Shown here: piece after piece, positions 4,490 through 62,749 of the stretch
Numbering within the stretch: position 1 is the first letter of the stretch
How the letters are laid out: each line of letters begins with the position of its first letter
Source of the DNA: Candidatus Omnitrophota bacterium
GTDB lineage: Bacteria; Omnitrophota; Gorgyraeia; VGKH01
Reading direction: 5' to 3'
Assembly (NCBI GenBank): GCA_043819095.1
Contig: JBDRFF010000020.1
Span: 35,890-99,889, forward strand
Length of the DNA stretch: 64,000 bases
Program-made: the position numbers and the translations under genes
The notes under the pieces: model-generated
Database searches by the model: none
What the model was told of the DNA's origin: nothing
Seen by the model: only the letters and a program-made list of their open reading frames with translations

Positions 4490-4668
4490 TAATTATTCCT
4501 CCTTCAATGACGTCATAATTTACGGAGTCCTAAGACGACGTAAATTATACGTCTGAAATGAACCCCACTTCTTGCTTTCGCAAGAAAGCAGCGGGGTAAA
4601 TTCAGCCAAACAACTTATGTTCCTCCGACGGTACGTCGGAGGAACATAAGTTGTGGCTTCATTTAAAG
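4490..4668. repeat. Modular nested-palindrome intergenic repeat element, copy B (most compact; perfect H3 palindrome)
   Basis: ccttcaatgacg left end; H1 gacgtcataatttacg/cgtaaattatacgtc; H2 ccccac..cttgctttcgcaagaaagcag..cgggg; H3 acaacttatgttcctccgacg-gta-cgtcggaggaacataagttgt (21-bp perfect arms); right end gtggcttcattt. Fills the entire metF-cooS gap. Its left end supplies the AGGAGG SD of cooS. Confidence 0.75.
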
Positions 4669-7255: not shown

Positions 7256-8921
7256 TGTCGTCGATATCTATTTTTTCCCCAGCCGGATGAGTTGGAAGCC
7301 CCGGCATCGTACGCATCTCTCCGCAAAGCACGTAAAGAAAACCAGCTCCCACAGAAGCCTTAATATCCCTTACGGGAAGAATAAAATCTTCAGGCCTGCC
7401 CTTTAGTTTAGGGTCATGTGAAAGTGAAAGATGAGTCTTAGCCATACAGATGGGGAACTTATTATATTTCAATTTTGTATAAAGCCTTACCTTTTCTTCT
7501 GCGCGCACTGAATAGAAAACGCTTTTTGCCCCATATATTTTCTTTGCGATTGTCTCTATCTTATCTTTAATTTTCATAGAATCAGGATAAAGATATTTAA
7601 AATGGCTCTTCTTATTAGCTGCTTTTGTAACGGCTCTGGCTAAATCTGTGCCGCCTTTTGAACCCTTTGCCCAGACTTCGCTTAGCGCAACATCATCGGC
7701 ACCGGCTTGCAAAGCTATTCTTTTTACCAGGTCTATCTCTTTTTTAGTATCTGTTGTAAATTTATTTACAGCCACAACGCAAGGAATCCCGAATTGTTTT
7801 ATATTCTCAATTTGCTTTTCTAAATTTGAGCTGCCTTCTCTTAATGCCTCAAGATTTTCCGATATAAGACCTTTACTCAAAGGCTTGCCGGCAACGACAT
7901 TAAATCTTCCGCTGTGCATCTTTAATGCCCGAATAGTACAAACCAGAACCGCTGCATCGGGTTTAATACCGCTATTTCTACACTTTATATTAAAGAATTT
8001 CTCCGCCCCGCAATCTGCGCCAAAGCCGCTTTCGGTGACAACAAAATCTGCTAATTTTACAGCTATCCTGTCTGCTAAAATAGAACTATTGCCGTGGGCG
8101 ATATTAGCAAACGGCCCTGCATGTACGAATACGGGGGTATTTTCTAACGTCTGAATAAGCGTTGGCTTTATCGCGTCCTTTAATAAAACAGCCATAGCTC
8201 CGGCGACTTTCAAGTCTTCTGCGGTAACTAACTTACCATTTTTTGTCATTGCTACAACTATACGCCCGATCCTTTTCCTTAAATCAGATAAATTCTCAGT
8301 AAGCGCCAATATAGCCATAATTTCACTGGCTACAGATATATCAAATCCTCCCTGACGAGGAATGCCGTCCTGTTTAGAGCCCAGACCAACAGTAATGTAT
8401 CTTAATGACCTGTCGCTCACATCAACTACCCTCTTCCAGAAAATCTTATGCATATCAAAATTAAATTTATGGCGATAGATTGCATTATCCAAGAAAGCTG
8501 CGCAAAGATTATGCGCCAGGCTGACCGCATGAACATCTCCTGTGAAATGGAGATTAAAATCTTCCATTGGGATTACTTGGGAATAACCGCCTCCGGCAGC
8601 TCCGCCCTTTATGCCGAATACCGGACCTAAAGAAGGCTGCCTAATACAGCTGATAGTTTTTTTGCCGATGCGATTAAGAGCCATTGACAACCCTATAGTG
8701 GTGACAGTTTTACCTTCACCAAGAGGCGTAGGTGTAATTGCGGTCACATCTATATATTTTGCATTCTTTTTATTCTTATTCTTTTTGATTAGATCCAAAG
8801 ACACCTTTGCCTTATAGTTGCCGTAAAACTCAAGATCACTATCCTTTATGCCAATCTTCTTGGCAATTTGCTTGATGGGCTTAATCTTTGCGTTTTGAGC
8901 AATTTCTAAATCTGAAAGCAT
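7230..8921 (-). CDS. fhs: Formate--tetrahydrofolate ligase
   Basis: 563 aa; canonical FTHFS N-terminus MLSDLEIAQNAKIKPI and P-loop region PTPLGEGKTVTTIGL. SD GAAGGAGG directly upstream. Confidence 0.9.
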   Translation of the reverse strand: MLSDLEIAQNAKIKPIKQIAKKIGIKDSDLEFYGNYKAKVSLDLIKKNKNKKNAKYIDVTAITPTPLGEGKTVTTIGLSMALNRIGKKTISCIRQPSLGPVFGIKGGAAGGGYSQVIPMEDFNLHFTGDVHAVSLAHNLCAAFLDNAIYRHKFNFDMHKIFWKRVVDVSDRSLRYITVGLGSKQDGIPRQGGFDISVASEIMAILALTENLSDLRKRIGRIVVAMTKNGKLVTAEDLKVAGAMAVLLKDAIKPTLIQTLENTPVFVHAGPFANIAHGNSSILADRIAVKLADFVVTESGFGADCGAEKFFNIKCRNSGIKPDAAVLVCTIRALKMHSGRFNVVAGKPLSKGLISENLEALREGSSNLEKQIENIKQFGIPCVVAVNKFTTDTKKEIDLVKRIALQAGADDVALSEVWAKGSKGGTDLARAVTKAANKKSHFKYLYPDSMKIKDKIETIAKKIYGAKSVFYSVRAEEKVRLYTKLKYNKFPICMAKTHLSLSHDPKLKGRPEDFILPVRDIKASVGAGFLYVLCGEMRTMPGLPTHPAGEKIDIDDNGQIRGLF

Positions 8922-9208
8922 TTGACCTCCTTCAATGACGACATAATTTACGGAGTTTTCAAACGACGTAAATTATTCGTCGAAATTGAACCCCCCACCA
9001 CTTTTAGTAATCAGGCGTTCTTTTATATAAAAACGTTTATCGTCTTTTCAAACCCACCATCTTTAATTCCACAGTTGTTTCTAAAAGTGGTGGGGGGTCA
9101 AATTTCCCTCGACGTTGCTCGGGACTCCTTCGAGGGATCCTGAGCGAAGTCGAAGGGCAGACAAACAATTTATGTCATTGCATTCCATAACTTGTGTCTT
9201 CATTTGAT
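8916..9208. repeat. Modular nested-palindrome intergenic repeat element, copy C (long H2 variant plus extra hairpin module, degenerate 3' end)
   Basis: Left end cctccttcaatgacg (supplies fhs SD). H1 gacgacataatttacgg/cgtaaattattcgtc. H2 17-bp perfect stem ccccccaccacttttag (8991-9007) / ctaaaagtggtgggggg (9081-9097). Extra hairpin ccctcgacg...cgtcgaggg (9106-9136). Ends ...gtgtcttcatttg next to the yraN stop. Confidence 0.7.
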
Positions 9209-9592
9209 CTAATATAGATAATGATTATCTAATAAAAACGCGTTTTTTATAATATCGACCTTATTTTCTCCGGATGAATTATGCATTACTGAAACAACAT
9301 CAAACCTTGCTGACTTCTTTAGTAATCTATTATTTTTTAAATATGATAAAGCCAATTGAGACAGCTTATGTTGTTTGCTCTTGGTGATTGACTCTTGAGG
9401 TGAGCCTTTTTCCTGCGTGGTTCTGGTTTTTACCTCCACAAAACAAATGCAATTCTTATCTTTTGCAACTATATCGATTTCTCCAAGGTTAGTTCTAAAA
9501 TTCTTTTCTAAAATCTTATAGCCATTGCTTTTTAAGAAATTGATTGCCGAATCTTCACCGGCAAGACCTAAATCTATTTTCTGTCTAGACAT
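9209..9592 (-). CDS. yraN: YraN family (UPF0102) endonuclease
   Basis: 127 aa; GEDSAINFLKSNGYKILEKNFR...GEIDIVAKD...FVEVKTR motif typical of YraN. Confidence 0.8.
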   Translation of the reverse strand: MSRQKIDLGLAGEDSAINFLKSNGYKILEKNFRTNLGEIDIVAKDKNCICFVEVKTRTTQEKGSPQESITKSKQHKLSQLALSYLKNNRLLKKSARFDVVSVMHNSSGENKVDIIKNAFLLDNHYLY

Positions 9593-13492: not shown

Positions 13493-14646
13493 TTTGAAAT
13501 TTCAGAACCAGGATAGTAATATTTTAATATCTCGTCGTATTTAAAACCACAATCAGACATAGATTTTGCACCCCATTGGCACAAGCCAACGCCGTGACCC
13601 CAGCCTTTACCAATAAAATCAGCGTAATATCCACGCATCTTAACTGTAAAATTAGTGCTTTTGATAATATTTGGCCCAACAATCATGCGAAATTCTTTTC
13701 CAGAAAGATAAATTTTACTGTCGCGACGGTCAATAATCTCTAATCTATCTATTCTTCCTGAATCGTTTATTTCTAGAATATTTATTTCTTTTATCAACCC
13801 AATTTTCTTGCCCGCTTTTATAAGCTTAACCTGGATATCCTTAAGTCTCAAATTTTCCTTCCATCGAATATGCGGAGATTTACTGTCAAAATCGCATTCC
13901 ACGCCTTTTAACGGCGGCAGATCAATATTCCAAAGCCGCGAGGCATCCTCAGTATGTCCAGCGCAAGTAGCATGGTAATACGTAGGAAAAATCTCTCCTT
14001 CGAAAGTCAGAAGTTCTCCTAGCGTCCGGTTTACGGCCATGTTTGTGCGGTATTTCTCAGACGTCCTTCCACCGTAGACCTGGGAATAAATATCACTGGT
14101 TAGATCATAATCTCTGGCTTCATTGACCTTTGCCTGGTAAAGCGCGTATGTCCTAGCCGCAACCGCCTGTGCCTTTATGGCCTCAAGAGGCCATTTATGC
14201 GAAACCTCATGATACAGGACTCCACGGATATAACTCTCGACATCAATATGATTCACCACCAAAAGCGTCATATCCTGCTGACGCACGATATCAACCTGGC
14301 CACGAAAACGGCGCTTATTTACAAATATGGTCGCATCTTTCTTTGGAACGATTTTTATGCCAAAAATCTTAAAATATGAATACCTCCCTATTTTTATTCC
14401 ATAATTAGTCGGTGTCACGATTGAAGTCTTCAAATTCCTATATTCAGCAAGAGGTTCATTGGTATTCAAAGAATAAATGCTAAAAGGCCCCTTTATGATA
14501 AGTCTTAAAGATAGCTTATCTTTGATTATCGCCACGCGCACGTATAAATTAGATTTAGTCGGCGAGGGCGGTTGCGAAAAGCCCAAAAGAGAAACCGCGC
14601 AGATTAGAATTATTAAAATTCTTGTTATCTTTTTTTCCATAACCAT
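13489..14646 (-). CDS. SpoIID/LytB domain protein (secreted; signal peptide)
   Basis: 385 aa; N-terminal hydrophobic leader; YHEVSHKWPLEAIKAQAVAARTYAL and CAGHTEDAS motifs of the SpoIID/LytB amidase-enhancer family. Confidence 0.7.
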   Translation of the reverse strand: MVMEKKITRILIILICAVSLLGFSQPPSPTKSNLYVRVAIIKDKLSLRLIIKGPFSIYSLNTNEPLAEYRNLKTSIVTPTNYGIKIGRYSYFKIFGIKIVPKKDATIFVNKRRFRGQVDIVRQQDMTLLVVNHIDVESYIRGVLYHEVSHKWPLEAIKAQAVAARTYALYQAKVNEARDYDLTSDIYSQVYGGRTSEKYRTNMAVNRTLGELLTFEGEIFPTYYHATCAGHTEDASRLWNIDLPPLKGVECDFDSKSPHIRWKENLRLKDIQVKLIKAGKKIGLIKEINILEINDSGRIDRLEIIDRRDSKIYLSGKEFRMIVGPNIIKSTNFTVKMRGYYADFIGKGWGHGVGLCQWGAKSMSDCGFKYDEILKYYYPGSEISK

Positions 14647-14849
14647 AAAACCATAGTCATGATAATGCTAATTAATATACATGTTGTTATGGGAAAATAA
14701 AATGAGGAATTCTTCTTCTGGATATAGATATCCCCCGGGAGTTTTCCCAACCAGGGAATTTTCCCTCCCAGAAGAAAAGTCAGTCCCAATATAACTAAAA
14801 CCACACCGACTAAAATTAATATTTTTCCCACAATATTAAGTTCGCTCAT
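14625..14849 (-). CDS. Small DUF2905-like membrane protein
   Basis: 74 aa, two hydrophobic helices, KIPWLGKLPGDIYIQKKN motif resembling DUF2905. Start codon abuts repeat element D. Confidence 0.4.
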   Translation of the reverse strand: MSELNIVGKILILVGVVLVILGLTFLLGGKIPWLGKLPGDIYIQKKNSSFYFPITTCILISIIMTMVLWLWKKR

Positions 14850-15047
14850 ATCTCTCGATTTCTAATGAGCGCACAATTTACGTCGCTATTGCTCCGTAAA
14901 TTGTTTGCGCGAATTAGACCCCACACCTTTTATCTATTCAAACTATCTTAAAAACTCCCACCAAAAAATATGAATACTAAAAAAGTGTGGGGTCAAATTC
15001 AACCATACGACTTATGTTCACTTCGTTCCATAAGTCGTGGCTTCATT
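14850..15047. repeat. Modular nested-palindrome intergenic repeat element, copy D (hybrid H1; H2 = ccccacac...gtgtgggg)
   Basis: ctaatgagcgc left end; H1 gcgcacaatttacg/cgtaaattgtttgcgc; gaattagacccc linker; ggggtcaaattcaacca linker; H3 cgacttatg..cataagtcg; right end gtggcttcatttgag. The queH stop (15018) lies inside. Confidence 0.7.
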
Positions 15048-15608
15048 TGAGAATATACATCCGCAATATTTTTGGCAATACAGGCCTGCATCTTTTGCTT
15101 TTTTATGCGCGTCGCGAAAACCGCTTCGAAAATCTTCGAATACAAACTTTATTCCTGTATCTTTTGAAATCTCTTCTCCGATTTTCTTTATTCTCTCGAT
15201 ATCCTGATACGGGCTGACCAAAAGCGTAGTCGAGAAACTCTCCATACCTTTATCTTTGGCAAATTCCGCAGTTTTCTTTAAACGGAGCTTCCAGCAGATA
15301 TGGCATCTCTGAGGCGCTTTCTCGTTATTTGCGATTACTCGAAAAAAATCTTCTGGACTGTATTTCTCTTCGCAATAAACAGAAATGCTATTCGGCTTTG
15401 AATAATCCTCAACAGCCTTCTTTCGATTTTCATATTCAAACAATGGTTGTATGTTGGGATTATAGAAAAAACCCGCCACTTCGTAGTCCTGTTTTTTTAA
15501 AATTTCATAAGGATAAATCAGACATGGCGCGCAGCAGGTATGAAGCAATAACTTCATTCTAAGTTTAAAATAAATCCTTTTGTTCTTGTTTTTTATTGGC
15601 GAGACCAA
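15018..15608 (-). CDS. queH: Epoxyqueuosine reductase QueH (DUF208)
   Basis: 196 aa; LLLHTCCAPC...CW...CGC cysteine pattern of DUF208/QueH. The last ~10 codons and stop lie inside repeat element D. Confidence 0.7.
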   Translation of the reverse strand: MVSPIKNKNKRIYFKLRMKLLLHTCCAPCLIYPYEILKKQDYEVAGFFYNPNIQPLFEYENRKKAVEDYSKPNSISVYCEEKYSPEDFFRVIANNEKAPQRCHICWKLRLKKTAEFAKDKGMESFSTTLLVSPYQDIERIKKIGEEISKDTGIKFVFEDFRSGFRDAHKKAKDAGLYCQKYCGCIFSNEATTYGTK

Positions 15609-35152: not shown

Positions 35153-36310
35153 CTAATGTTTAAGTATAATCAATAAAAACAGACCAAGTCCAAAAAATAC
35201 AAAAGCGGTTATAAGTTTTACCTTTGCAAGGTGCCTGCTGGCTAACTTTGCAAAAGTCTGGGAAGTCGTTCCCAAAAGCGCGAACAAAAATATCGCTAAT
35301 AACGGCACAATAAACATAAGATTATAAAGAATTAGATAAAACCAGGCCTTTGTTTTCAGTTCAGGAATACCTAAGACGTAAACGATCGTAGGCAGATACA
35401 ATTGTCCGGTGCAGACCGATTCTAAAAGTGAAACAATGAACCCACAGCTTAAAGCCGTAAGCATTAACCTAAGCAGAGTTCGACGCTTGTGACCTTCTTC
35501 TCTATCATCTGTCTTTTCCCTTATAGTTGATTGTATTCGCTTCTTTATAAAACCGGGAAGTTTTAATTTTACTCTCTCAGGATCCTTTGTCTTTTTAAAA
35601 ATCCACCAATCATATAAACTAATTGCCCCCAAAGTCAAAGCTAAAATAGCTGTAGTTAAATAAATCAAATATGAAAAGATAACAAAAAATGCCAGCCTTC
35701 TAAAAATCTCAAATAGGCCAAGACCGATCCATAGATAGGTAAAAAATACCGCCGTAATAAAGAAGCTTCCTAAGATTATAGTTTGTTTGCGGCTGTAACC
35801 TGCGAAGGTCAAAAAAGATATAAAAAATATAAGAACCGTAAACGCACAAGGGTTTATCCCGTCGATAAGACCGGCTGTAATTATGGTCAACCAACTAAAA
35901 GACCCGAAACGGCCTATCAACACTTCTTTTTGCGGACGTATATCGGCTAATAGCTTAACTGATAATATTGGCTGCTTAGGATCATTTGTATGAATATAGA
36001 TATATTTTATAGTTTTAGATGTAAAACCCGTTGTATTAAATAAAAATTTTATATCTAATCTATCGCCTGGTGCGACTTTAGCCTGTTTGCTTGGCTCAAG
36101 AATCTTTACACATCCGCAGTTTACCTTTAGTAAATCTACTAATAAGGCTTTATCGCCAGTGTTCTGAATTGCAAAGCTATGTTCATAGACCATTCCTTCT
36201 GCCATCTGCCCCAGATCAAATTCTTTATTGGCAATAGAAATCTCTGGAGACGCAAAAGAACTTACGGCGACAGAAAAAAACAATGTAATTAAAAGCGCGA
36301 TTCTTTTCAT
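35153..36310 (-). CDS. Fusion of periplasmic DUF1573 domain and CcdA/DsbD-type transmembrane thiol-disulfide transporter domain
   Basis: 385 aa; signal peptide; DUF1573 signature (IQNTGDKALLVDLLKVNCGCVKI). Then a 6-TM region with the two conserved DsbD/CcdA cysteines in GINPCAF and LESVCTGQ contexts. Confidence 0.6.
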   Translation of the reverse strand: MKRIALLITLFFSVAVSSFASPEISIANKEFDLGQMAEGMVYEHSFAIQNTGDKALLVDLLKVNCGCVKILEPSKQAKVAPGDRLDIKFLFNTTGFTSKTIKYIYIHTNDPKQPILSVKLLADIRPQKEVLIGRFGSFSWLTIITAGLIDGINPCAFTVLIFFISFLTFAGYSRKQTIILGSFFITAVFFTYLWIGLGLFEIFRRLAFFVIFSYLIYLTTAILALTLGAISLYDWWIFKKTKDPERVKLKLPGFIKKRIQSTIREKTDDREEGHKRRTLLRLMLTALSCGFIVSLLESVCTGQLYLPTIVYVLGIPELKTKAWFYLILYNLMFIVPLLAIFLFALLGTTSQTFAKLASRHLAKVKLITAFVFFGLGLFLLIILKH

Positions 36311-39919: not shown

Positions 39920-40804
39920 TTATTGCCATTTGGCCTCTTTTAATAAAAATTCTATTACCCTACTGGCTTTTTGCTCGGGTTTCTCTACCTGTATATTTTC
40001 AAGCTCTGCGATTTTATCAAGAATAAAATAAACCTTTACGTCGTTTATCGCAGTCTGCCTTAATTGTTCTCTAAGCTCTTTATCTTTTGATTCGACTTCT
40101 TCTTTTTTTGTACCCTGCATAGTCATACGATGTTTTGCTTCTTGTACTAAATAATCAAGTTGTTTTTCAATAGAGCTTTTAGGAACTTCAAGTTCAGAAT
40201 TTTTAAGCAATTGCTGGATTATTTGGTTTTCCATATCAATCCTTGTTTGCTGAGCCTTAGCAAGATCAAGCTGCTTTTTGATTGTCTCTTTCAATTCATT
40301 GAGGTCTAGGTAACCTAGCCCCTTGGCAAAAGAATCGTCGAACGTGACATTCTTATCCAGGCCTTTTGATTCGCGAAGAAAATCAAGGCTTTTATTGACA
40401 TCCTCATCAGTTACGGCGGCCTTCTTTCTCTTTACGTCGAGGCCTTTGTGCTTTTTGATTTTTACTTCCGGAATTATCTCGAAAGTTGCCTTAAAAGAAA
40501 AACCTCCCTCTTTAAATGCCACGTCGGAAACCTCGGGTAAATTCACAGGCATCAATTTTTCTTTTTCTAAGGCCTCACGATATGAATTAGGAATTAAGTC
40601 CTTTATTACCTCTTCTCTTGCAAGCTTGCTATGCTGTGCCTGTACCATGGGCATCGGCGCCATGCCTGGACGAAATCCCTTAATATGCGCTTTTTTTTGA
40701 ATCTCCTTATAGACATCGTCAAATTTCTTATCAACGACTTCCTTGGGAAGGTCTATAATCATTTCTCTTTTACAGACATCAATTTTCTTAAGCGTTGTCT
40801 TCAT
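39920..40804 (-). CDS. tig: Trigger factor lacking the central FKBP-type PPIase domain
   Basis: 294 aa; ribosome-binding signature [12 protein letters not shown] in the N-domain. The sequence passes from the N-domain/linker (DFLRESKG) straight into C-domain-like helices, with no PPIase-like segment. tig-clpP synteny is conserved. Confidence 0.75.
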
Positions 40805-41068
40805 ATTAATCCTTTAATGAGCGCTTGGCTTATGGAATCCGCCAAAGTTCTGTGGCGGATGACATAAGTCAACTGCGCGAATTGAACCCCCCACCACTTT
40901 TAGCAAGGGCCTTCATTTTATGTAGGACGTTTATCCTTCTTTTCAAACCCACCAAATTTAATTCCACCGTTATTTCTAAAAGTGGTGGGGGGTAAGTTCG
41001 AACATATAACTTATGTTCCTCCGACGCCTCGTCGGAGTCCATAAGTTATGTCCTCACTTACATTCTGA
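40805..41068. repeat. Modular nested-palindrome intergenic repeat element, copy E (H1 variant 2 with nested ccgcca/tggcgg hairpin; long H2 variant as in copy C)
   Basis: ttaatgagcgc left end; H1 gcgcttggcttatgg...cataagtcaactgcgc; H2 stem ccccccaccacttttag (40887-40903) / ctaaaagtggtgggggg (40976-40992) with internal cttttcaaacccacca..tttaattccac shared with copy C; H3 ataacttatgttcctccgacg-cct-cgtcggagtccataagttat. The lptB stop lies at its right end and the tig start at its left end. Confidence 0.7.
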
Positions 41069-62639: not shown

Positions 62640-62668
62640 ATTCTATCACATAAAATCTGCTGTGTCAA
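62640..62668 (-). promoter_or_regulatory. Predicted sigma70-type promoter for the aroK-dprA-topA operon
   Basis: On the minus strand: TTGACA (62668-62663) - 17 nt spacer - TAGAAT (62645-62640). It lies ~40 nt upstream of the preferred aroK start and inside the GTG-initiated ORF extension. Confidence 0.5.
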
Positions 62669-62694
62669 ACCTTTACGCAACCCCCAAAGAAACA

Positions 62695-62729
62695 GCCCGG
62701 CCAGCTATATATTGCATAGCTGGCCGGGC
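62695..62729 (-). terminator. GC-rich perfect 14-bp hairpin downstream of aroC (candidate terminator/attenuator)
   Basis: gcccggccagctat-atattgc-atagctggccgggc. On the minus strand it is followed by UGUUUCUUUGGGGG. Confidence 0.45.
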
Positions 62730-62749
62730 CTATAATCAATATTTTCTGT

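Follow-up and report, generated by a model that had tools for sequence, protein, structure and literature searches.

Why should one stretch of chromosome carry the same long hairpin, around the same enclosed segment, in two gaps between different genes? The question is raised by 64,000 nt of DNA from a Candidatus Omnitrophota bacterium (positions 35,890 to 99,889 of contig JBDRFF010000020.1, assembly GCA_043819095.1; the whole stretch analysed is referred to as the window). Five modular intergenic elements (A-E) were recognised within these 64 kb, each lying between co-directional genes, and the genes adjoining the elements are mutually unrelated. Copies C and E share the long form of a central hairpin (H2) flanked by two outer hairpins (H1 and H3). 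These elements represent an undescribed family of three-hairpin intergenic palindromic repeats in an Omnitrophota clade; nothing relevant was found in the literature on Omnitrophota repeats or on the sequence of the hairpin arm. The reading preferred here, to which a probability of roughly 55% is attached, is that the C/E family is a mosaic palindromic repeat of the repetitive extragenic palindromic (REP)/BIME or Correia kind, acting as a co-transcribed intercistronic hairpin cassette in which H2 would be a processing duplex.

Architecture of the elements

An earlier note on this DNA had described a perfect 17-bp H2 stem in both C and E. The stem was confirmed, with an exact arm of 18 nt, ACCCCCCACCACTTTTAG, situated at 8990-9007 (+) facing 9081-9098 (-) in C and at 40886-40903 (+) facing 40976-40993 (-) in E. 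These four matches without mismatch compare with 0.04 expected in the window when up to three mismatches are allowed, and the inverted repeat in C reaches 29 nt at 90% complementarity. The enclosed segment, previously estimated at ~75 nt and reported as conserved, measures 73 nt in C (9008-9080) and 72 nt in E (40904-40975). A 78-nt direct repeat comprising most of this interior and the right arm exhibits 82% identity between C and E, and the 17-mer TCTTTTCAAACCCACCA is identical in both interiors. Folding energies of the H2 regions of C and E lie between -44 and -47 kcal/mol (z-scores between -4.2 and -6.9 against shuffled sequence), and the whole elements fold at z = -7.7 and z = -8.5 (C and E, respectively).

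H2 does not stand alone: it belongs, as one of three hairpins, to a mosaic repeat that comes and goes at gene junctions. The spans assigned earlier to C and E (8916-9208 and 40805-41068) proved to be those of the whole intergenic gaps, 8922-9208 and 40805-41057. On the transcribed strand the order is end motif, H3, junction, H2, junction, H1 and end motif, with the element extending from the upstream stop codon through to the ribosome-binding site of the downstream gene. The upstream end motif, (A)AATGA(A/G)G, overlaps or abuts the stop codon. H3 is connected to H2 by GAAYTnnA and H2 to H1 by TnnAATTC, the base of H2 itself being CCCC-N-CACC.../...GGTG-N'-GGGG. H1 is the mirror image of H3, such that GA/GA in H3 becomes TC/TC in H1 (i.e. 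UC/UC in RNA), and the outer hairpins measure about 39-58 nt. The downstream end motif, C(T/G)TCATT, is usually followed by (G/A)AAGGAGG and a start codon. The right ends of other copies read TCATT(G/A)AAGGAGG, and those in L054, L061, L074, L076, L091, L113 and L115 read TCATTAAAATG or TCATTTAATATG with the gene start 3-5 nt further on and no Shine-Dalgarno sequence.

Copy C (8922-9208, minus strand, as for all features of the five elements given below) fills the gap between the stop codon of a yraN-like (UPF0102) gene (9209-9211) and the start codon of the FTHFS gene (8919-8921). Its right-end motif, TCATTGAAGGAGG on the sense strand (8922-8936), includes the FTHFS Shine-Dalgarno sequence and is followed, in order of rising coordinates, by H1 (8937-8981; core AATTTACG-TC-GTTT..AAAC-TC-CGTAAATT) and by H2 of the long subtype, termed alpha (8982-9106; 121 bits on the minus strand with the covariance model described below). 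The extra hairpin that had been reported in C at 9106-9136 is present, but its stem is of 7 bp (ccctcga/tcgaggg) and its right arm reads cttcgaggg, not cgtcgaggg. A further 7-bp hairpin (ccttcga/tcgaagg, 9127-9156) overlaps it. Both belong to a stretch of 53 nt (9106-9158) in which CCCT(T)CGA repeats overlap one another; this stretch is related to the inner hairpin, CCGACG...CGTCGG, that A, B and E have inside H3. The 3' end of C, earlier described as degenerate, is indeed imperfect but still recognisable as the outer hairpin H3 (9160-9198), which with the left-end motif, AAATGAAG on the sense strand, occupies 9160-9205.

Copy E (40805-41060) includes the stop codon of an lptB-like ABC-ATPase gene (41058-41060) within its end motif and adjoins the start codon of the trigger-factor gene (40802-40804). 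It consists of H1 with an inner GC-rich hairpin (40821-40878), an alpha H2 (40878-41001; 105.6 bits, minus strand) and H3 (41000-41053), whose inner CTCCGACG..CGTCGGAG hairpin has GA/GA on its flanks. The remaining elements carry other H2 alleles. In copy A (1794-1990) the upstream Fer4 open reading frame (ORF) reads through H3 to a stop codon at 1929-1931 within the element, copy B (4490-4664) has a short H2 allele and is located between the MTHFR and CODH genes, and in copy D (14860-15048; 23.9 bits) the QueH ORF stops inside H3. The diverged 'delta' H2 allele of D has both arms changed together, CCCCACAC.../...GTGTGGGG.

Elements are gained and lost at gene junctions

The spread of H2 was assessed by searching species-representative genomes and metagenomes for the exact 18-mer arm. 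Matches were obtained at 32 loci in the genomes and 92 loci in the metagenomes, mostly of Omnitrophota, and none in viral contigs, plasmids or phages. By our own estimate ~17 chance matches would be expected among the genomes, yet nearly all of the matches have a partner arm within 200 nt. The hosts comprise at least nine Omnitrophota metagenome-assembled genomes (MAGs) or single-cell genomes and two bins labelled Planctomycetia. The C/E subtype is the commonest H2 allele. Conservation of the interior, which other copies might have lacked, extends well beyond C and E: about 60 non-identical copies with a ~72-nt interior of this type, falling into three sub-forms (alpha, beta and gamma), were collected from at least nine Omnitrophota genomes and from metagenomes.

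On the sense strand the interior has the consensus AGAAACAACCGTGGAATTAAAGATGGTGGGTTTGAAAAGAAGATAAACGTTTTATATAAAAGAACGCCCCATTA and consists, from 5' to 3', of AGAAA, a variable stretch of ~12 nt, a degenerate arm copy (R') and an A-rich block with GATAAACGTTTTAT. The interior is optional, as identical arms surround short or unrelated loops in other copies. In the JBARPB01 genome (L001, L007:2597-2647, L019:7734-7784, L023:5432-5482, L026:3868-3932) canonical arms surround a loop of 23-37 nt in which a 14-mer, reading CTAAAAGTGGTGCA in the sense direction, is present as one or two extra tandem copies, 3'-arm copies having expanded by slippage. At L039:6472-6648 and L072:2570-2746 a unit of 5' arm plus interior is tandemly doubled in one H2, with 177 nt between the outermost arms.

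Turnover was followed at the junction occupied by copy E. The order of the lptB-like ABC-ATPase gene and tig is kept in eight related genomes whilst the content of the junction varies, with a multi-hairpin element in four, a mini version in one and an empty site in three. Taking the trigger factor of the window (full element, alpha H2) as the reference, full elements were observed at trigger-factor identities of 76% (L068, alpha H2) and 70% (L126, with the 'delta' H2 allele of window copy D). A reduced H3 with an alpha-like H2 of co-varied arms and no H1 was present at 69% (L129) and a 46-nt single-hairpin mini version at 62% (L130). Empty junctions with a spacer of 22-29 nt occurred at 81% (L128), 78% (L125) and 59% (L127). 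Both gain and loss of the elements at gene junctions are evident. A different intergenic repeat, with cgaaat/atttcg and ttcgaa motifs, was seen at L125:1738-1874, L125:3875-4062 and L129:642-795, its carriers being related genomes without the three-hairpin element in the sampled region.

Where the element is retained, its parts have diverged unequally. Between the window and L068, identity is 49% at four-fold degenerate sites as compared to 85-97% in the H2 arms and junctions and 68% in the interior; H1 and H3 are about 50% identical, and both are still long hairpins. The H2 arms are strongly constrained. For the interior, which the earlier note had proposed to be functional, retention at this orthologous site above the four-fold level and a locked sense in 57 of 61 copies agree with the proposal, but the segment is dispensable to the hairpin and changes about nine times faster than the arms. 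A parsimony analysis of 59 copies gave about 7.9 changes per site in the interior and 0.85 in the arms. Interior sites differ mildly in rate (dispersion 1.44, P = 0.009), and those that change most slowly are AGAAA, the GG of R', ATAAA and TTTA.

Presence and absence at one orthologous junction among close relatives is what would be expected of a selfish or neutral DNA palindrome (a miniature inverted-repeat transposable element (MITE) or a REP/REPIN-like sequence) spread by some transposase or by recombination. Template switching or gene conversion would then keep the hairpins perfect, and the interior would be a passenger from arm duplication with no host function. In keeping with this alternative, the upstream ORFs of A and D run into H3 and end inside the element, H2 alleles are shuffled among sites and genomes, and tandem arm copies occur (i.e. 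the 14-mers of the JBARPB genome and the 177-nt units of L039 and L072); the rapid change of the interior relative to the arms also suits a passenger. The ends of the element are, moreover, inverted repeats of 7-8 nt, AATGA(A/G)G / C(T/G)TCATT. The longer 'arms' are separate hairpins that differ in sequence within one element, unlike fresh terminal inverted repeats. No consistent target-site duplication was found between filled and empty orthologous sites, no partner transposase in the loci examined, and no arm pair at the distance of an insertion sequence, as a full-length insertion sequence with the same ends would have, among 125 fetched loci. That the element has persisted at one site while synonymous divergence became saturated, its arms still 85-97% identical, also argues against selfish spread, as do the strict orientation of the interior and the extra arm that is always of the 3' type, since a neutral passenger should flip. 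A purely selfish origin is considered possible but doubtful.

Base-pairing was maintained despite sequence change. The 74 outer hairpins contain 1117 Watson-Crick pairs, 9 G·U and 6 A·C, and one stem position was occupied across copies by CG (29), TA (26), GC (5), TG (5) and CA (2). The H2 stem co-varies across alleles at CCCC[C/G/T/A]CACC, and the alleles CCCCCCACC, CCCCGCACC, CCCCTCACC and CCCCACAC each have a matching 3' arm, indicating that pairing matters and not sequence alone. Covariation of the closing stem within the collected set is uninformative because the copies were collected by the exact 18-mer arm, and hence have near-invariant pairs. At the D site, the orthologue in L094 has paired substitutions in H3 and H1 (C-G to G-C and T-A to C-G), an inverted inner H1 (GA/GA to TC/TC) and a different H2 allele. 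The hairpins persist via compensatory change.

Polarity, transcription and rival readings

The interior points in the same direction as the flanking genes, at first in all of 21 copies and then, in the larger set, in 57 of 61. The apparent exceptions are ORF-calling errors or a single divergent-gene locus (L045/L114). At this sole clear exception (L045:3850-4150, L114:1620-1920), where the genes on either side of the element diverge, the element ends directly at the start codon of the left-hand gene and the H2 interior points the opposite way. With a covariance model built from 59 copies, sense-strand scores were about 100-120 bits and antisense scores about 45-55 bits. The polarity of the optional interior is fixed and follows gene direction.

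An interior that is always directed at the downstream gene could be an outward promoter of the sigma-70 type, with the 3' arm and H1 as its 5' untranslated region. A partial match was present in the alpha subtype only (TTGAAA-N17-TATAAA in C and TTGAAA-N18-CATAAA in E), the downstream genes are of kinds that are usually highly expressed (tig, FTHFS, CODH) and some of them start 3-5 nt past the element without a Shine-Dalgarno sequence. Correia elements can create promoters (PMC2649163). A promoter/terminator scan of C and E, however, gave no promoter-like or terminator-like call inside either. Neither C nor E has a hexamer that combines A at position 2 with T at position 6, beta and gamma do not keep the spacing or the -10-like hexamer, and inspection by eye revealed no sigma-54 or ECF-type motifs. 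The empty sites, with 22-29 nt from lptB to tig, indicate that tig needs no promoter of its own there. Taken together, these results make a promoter quite unlikely. A leader peptide was likewise rejected on manual reading, as the mini-ORF ATGGTGGGTTTGAAAAGACGATAA of C (MVGLKRR) is frame-shifted in E and different in beta.

The earlier note had proposed a structured RNA loop and a structure and covariance check on further copies. When this check was run on the collected copies, RNAalifold (52-60 copies, both orientations) recovered the closing stem alone, with no covariation-supported helix in the interior. An all-against-all column scan of the interior gave no informative signal, and the interiors of C and E differ in their minimum-energy folds; the proposed loop structure is not borne out. 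The related possibility that long H2 is a structured cis-regulatory RNA (i.e. a riboswitch or attenuator) or a ~100-nt small RNA is highly improbable. The fixed orientation, the alternative partners of the 5' arm described below and a three-arm polarity repeated across several designs would fit such an RNA. The missing interior helices would not, and there is no U-tract after either hairpin, the neighbours are unrelated genes and the element is dispensable at orthologous sites. Searches for known families were also negative: Rfam 15 gave no match over the whole window at gathering thresholds, its E-value mode gave only generic miRNA-precursor-like hairpins far below threshold for C and E, and ARAGORN detected no tRNA or tmRNA genes in the window.

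The interior does, however, contain a pairing partner for the 5' arm. R', a decoy arm, is a degenerate copy of the 3' arm in the 5' half of the interior (TAAAGATGGTGGG as compared to TAAAAGTGGTGGGGGG in the true arm), present at 9049-9066 in C (TTAAAGATGGTGGGTTTG, sense strand) and at 40944-40961 in E. Pairing of the 5' arm was calculated at -15.7 kcal/mol with the 5' half of the interior, -9.5 with shuffled sequence, -2.1 with the 3' half and -32.2 with the true 3' arm. The 5' arm has, therefore, two mutually exclusive partners, R' and the true 3' arm. In L129, where both arms are altered, R' is altered along with them, and all designs seen (long, tandem 14-mer and L043 group) agree in that the extra arm, taken in the sense direction, is a copy of the 3' type. 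An unlikely but more far-reaching interpretation is that H2 is a conserved three-arm RNA device (C-rich 5' arm, weak decoy and perfect 3' arm, with this sense-strand order never varying) of Omnitrophota and Patescibacteria, in which a trans-acting factor reading the GGUGG(G) arms or the A-rich interior would pick the hairpin and so switch intercistronic processing or read-through. If true, this would constitute a new class of mobile plug-in post-transcriptional regulator across two phyla of ultra-small cells.

The preferred reading, a co-transcribed cassette, draws on the signals around the hairpins. H2 is followed by TTCAATTC, and no T run of four or more comes after any of the three hairpins. 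At the empty sites a promoter would not fit, so that tig would be co-transcribed with the upstream gene in those genomes. Together with the absence of a terminator call in C and E, this makes it most likely that the element is read through in polycistronic mRNA. Transcribed as intercistronic RNA, the long perfect H2 duplex (18-29 bp) would offer a double-strand-specific processing site of the RNase III type, perfect duplexes of this length being classical RNase III substrates. After cleavage the upstream message would end in H3 as a protective 3' hairpin, and the downstream message would begin with H1 as a 5' hairpin just before its ribosome-binding site, which would uncouple the stabilities of the neighbouring cistrons. 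As H3 begins 4-10 nt past the stop codon, it could also impede terminating ribosomes, an effect described for REP sequences near stop codons in E. coli. R', being transcribed ahead of the true 3' arm, may form a weaker, faster-forming hairpin that delays or tunes formation of the full duplex. A precedent is offered by the Correia elements, which can bind IHF and RNase III and may be either cleaved or protected by RNase III (PMC2649163).

Several observations weigh against a processing cassette. Close relatives lack the element at the same junction, and it is therefore dispensable there. The lack of a G·U excess over A·C in the near-perfect Watson-Crick stems makes maintenance as a DNA-level palindrome look likelier than a typical RNA helix, and the mirror symmetry of H1 and H3 together with the inversion of the inner H1 between orthologues is likewise a DNA-level property; the pairing statistics and the inversion both favour the selfish explanation. 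With all window genes on one strand, transcription and replication orientation are inseparable. Finally, the near-invariant sequence of the 18-nt arm is unaccounted for, as RNase III needs no fixed sequence.

Arm sequence that is near-invariant beyond the needs of pairing would be explained by a protein-binding site in DNA, on the analogy of IHF or gyrase at BIME-1 and Correia elements, with the H2 arms and the A/T-rich near-palindrome ATAAACGTTTTAT as the sites. The two-fold symmetry of the whole element and an interior conserved as primary sequence without supporting structure are consistent with such a site. The IHF consensus (WATCAANNNNTTR), however, was not visible by eye on either strand of the interior, and the co-variation of the H2 arms across alleles indicates that pairing counts too. 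The wider distribution of the stem bears on this possibility. The same 17-18 nt stem, CCCCCCACCACTTTT(AG)/(CT)AAAAGTGGTGGGGGG, was also met as a hairpin on its own, in MAGs that bear the labels Saccharibacteria, Magasanikbacteria, Moranbacteria and Patescibacteria (i.e. the Patescibacteria/candidate phyla radiation loci L006:7913-7971, L009:2403-2499, L010:6990-7092, L016:1688-1744 and L021:7784-7841; also L073:879-914). Its loops are unrelated and of 4 to about 80 nt, and several copies are followed by a T-run and are terminator-like. A search for known RNAs at these hairpins found none overlapping, only unrelated tRNAs. In L009 (2173-2542) the stem is enclosed by two near-perfect sigma-70 promoters that point away from each other (TTGACA-N17-TATAAT and TATAGT); their -35 boxes abut and extend the palindrome, and a third, inverted copy of the promoter module is located 290 nt away. 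Recurrence of the stem in Patescibacteria and its position in L009 favour a bound factor, but an arm spacing ranging from 4 to >80 nt fits a dimeric operator poorly, and a DNA-level binding site is regarded as very unlikely. The Patescibacteria stem may reflect horizontal spread, a shared binding factor or mis-binning, three explanations that stand side by side; unless it is a binning artefact, it would imply horizontal spread or a shared recognition factor in two ultra-small groups.

Neighbouring sequence and known repeat families

The window is a chromosome segment of 39% G+C, with a GC skew that is uniformly negative over 64 kb and with every called gene (1-64000) on the minus strand, an extreme co-orientation. 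Domain profiling covered ten window ORFs. The Wood-Ljungdahl enzymes FTHFS, CODH and MTHFR are encoded in the window. The trigger factor (39920-40804, minus strand; 294 aa) has Trigger_N and Trigger_C domains and is without an FKBP/PPIase domain; it matches, at 100% identity, a protein encoded on a 161,755-bp contig of a Candidatus Omnitrophota MAG. Among the matches listed (n = 120), its homologues are nearly all short (293-311 aa, with one truncated at 248 aa), which suggests that the PPIase domain was lost across the clade. Copy D is followed immediately by a small unlisted ORF (about 14640-14849, minus strand) for a hydrophobic protein of ~70 aa, MSELNIVGKILILVG...; this ORF is kept in an orthologous contig (L094:1343-1399), and 14733-14771 within it is a tandem repeat of 17 nt.

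Another family of intergenic repeats, unrelated to the first and rich in direct and inverted GCAGAT/ATCTGC motifs, has the form gaacgcagatattcgcggattgcacgcagatggtcgcagatt...atctgcgttagatttgcg. It was observed upstream of the Fer4 gene (2427-2557) and at L126:2601-3000 and L126:6488-6613, and is thus shared by the window with a related genome. The gap at 62650-62749 contains a canonical intrinsic terminator, ggcccggccagcta...tagctggccgggc with tgtttcttt after it, indicating that the organism employs ordinary terminators elsewhere.

In the uncultivated Omnitrophota, whose genes are tightly packed on one strand, a cassette that inserts exactly between stop codon and ribosome-binding site is a candidate for the punctuation and differential expression of long arrays of co-directional genes. 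Its alleles can be tracked across genomes and provide a marker for strain typing and bin checking within the clade. The family additionally allows a direct comparison of palindrome maintenance at the RNA and DNA levels.

In kind, the family is closest to BIME-1/RIP, Correia, BOX and MIRU elements, and it shares sequence with none of these. In BIME-1 and RIP-RIB of Enterobacteria, a linker that contains an IHF site separates two REP hairpins of opposite orientation. The Omnitrophota elements resemble BIME-1 in being extragenic and multi-copy, with two inverted imperfect palindromic units about a distinct central module, in lying near stop codons between genes that are (here, probably) co-transcribed, without target-site duplications, and in being mosaics of a few modules. 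They differ in host, an uncultivated phylum, in lacking any sequence similarity, in having as central module a long conserved hairpin with alternative alleles rather than a short linker, and in conserving AATGA(A/G)G and GAATT at their flanks rather than GTAG. The features of REP/BIME families, extragenic multi-copy palindromes and inverted units (H3/H1) around a specific linker, were both observed; of those of MITEs, insertion polymorphism among relatives was found whereas target-site duplication was not. No RAYT transposase was identified among the ten profiled ORFs, with no search aimed at RAYT.

Correia elements (CREE; NEMIS) of Neisseria have 26-bp terminal inverted repeats and a TA duplication, as compared to Omnitrophota ends of only 7-8 nt with no duplication found. 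The three-hairpin build and the decoy arm are without Correia counterpart, and the Omnitrophota interior shows no IHF consensus by eye. Both families are small non-coding inverted repeats at gene junctions, present or absent among relatives, and in both an internal segment distinguishes the long form from the short. Correia elements are co-transcribed and form a hairpin on which RNase III can potentially act (PMC2649163); the same is proposed here for H2.

BOX elements of S. pneumoniae are modular in a comparable manner, with boxA-boxB(n)-boxC set against H3-H2-H1. BOX and the ERIC (IRU) elements of Enterobacteria also share with the Omnitrophota family predicted stable transcript structures and size variants that arise through internal insertions at fixed points. 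The sequences are unrelated, the BOX modules are not mirror-image hairpins and ERIC is a single long imperfect palindrome. The MIRUs of mycobacteria are tandem direct repeats carrying small coupled ORFs and differ in this from the Omnitrophota element, which is without a conserved ORF. The two are nevertheless alike in being strictly intercistronic, in being oriented with the flanking genes and in having ends that overlap the stop and start signals of their neighbours.

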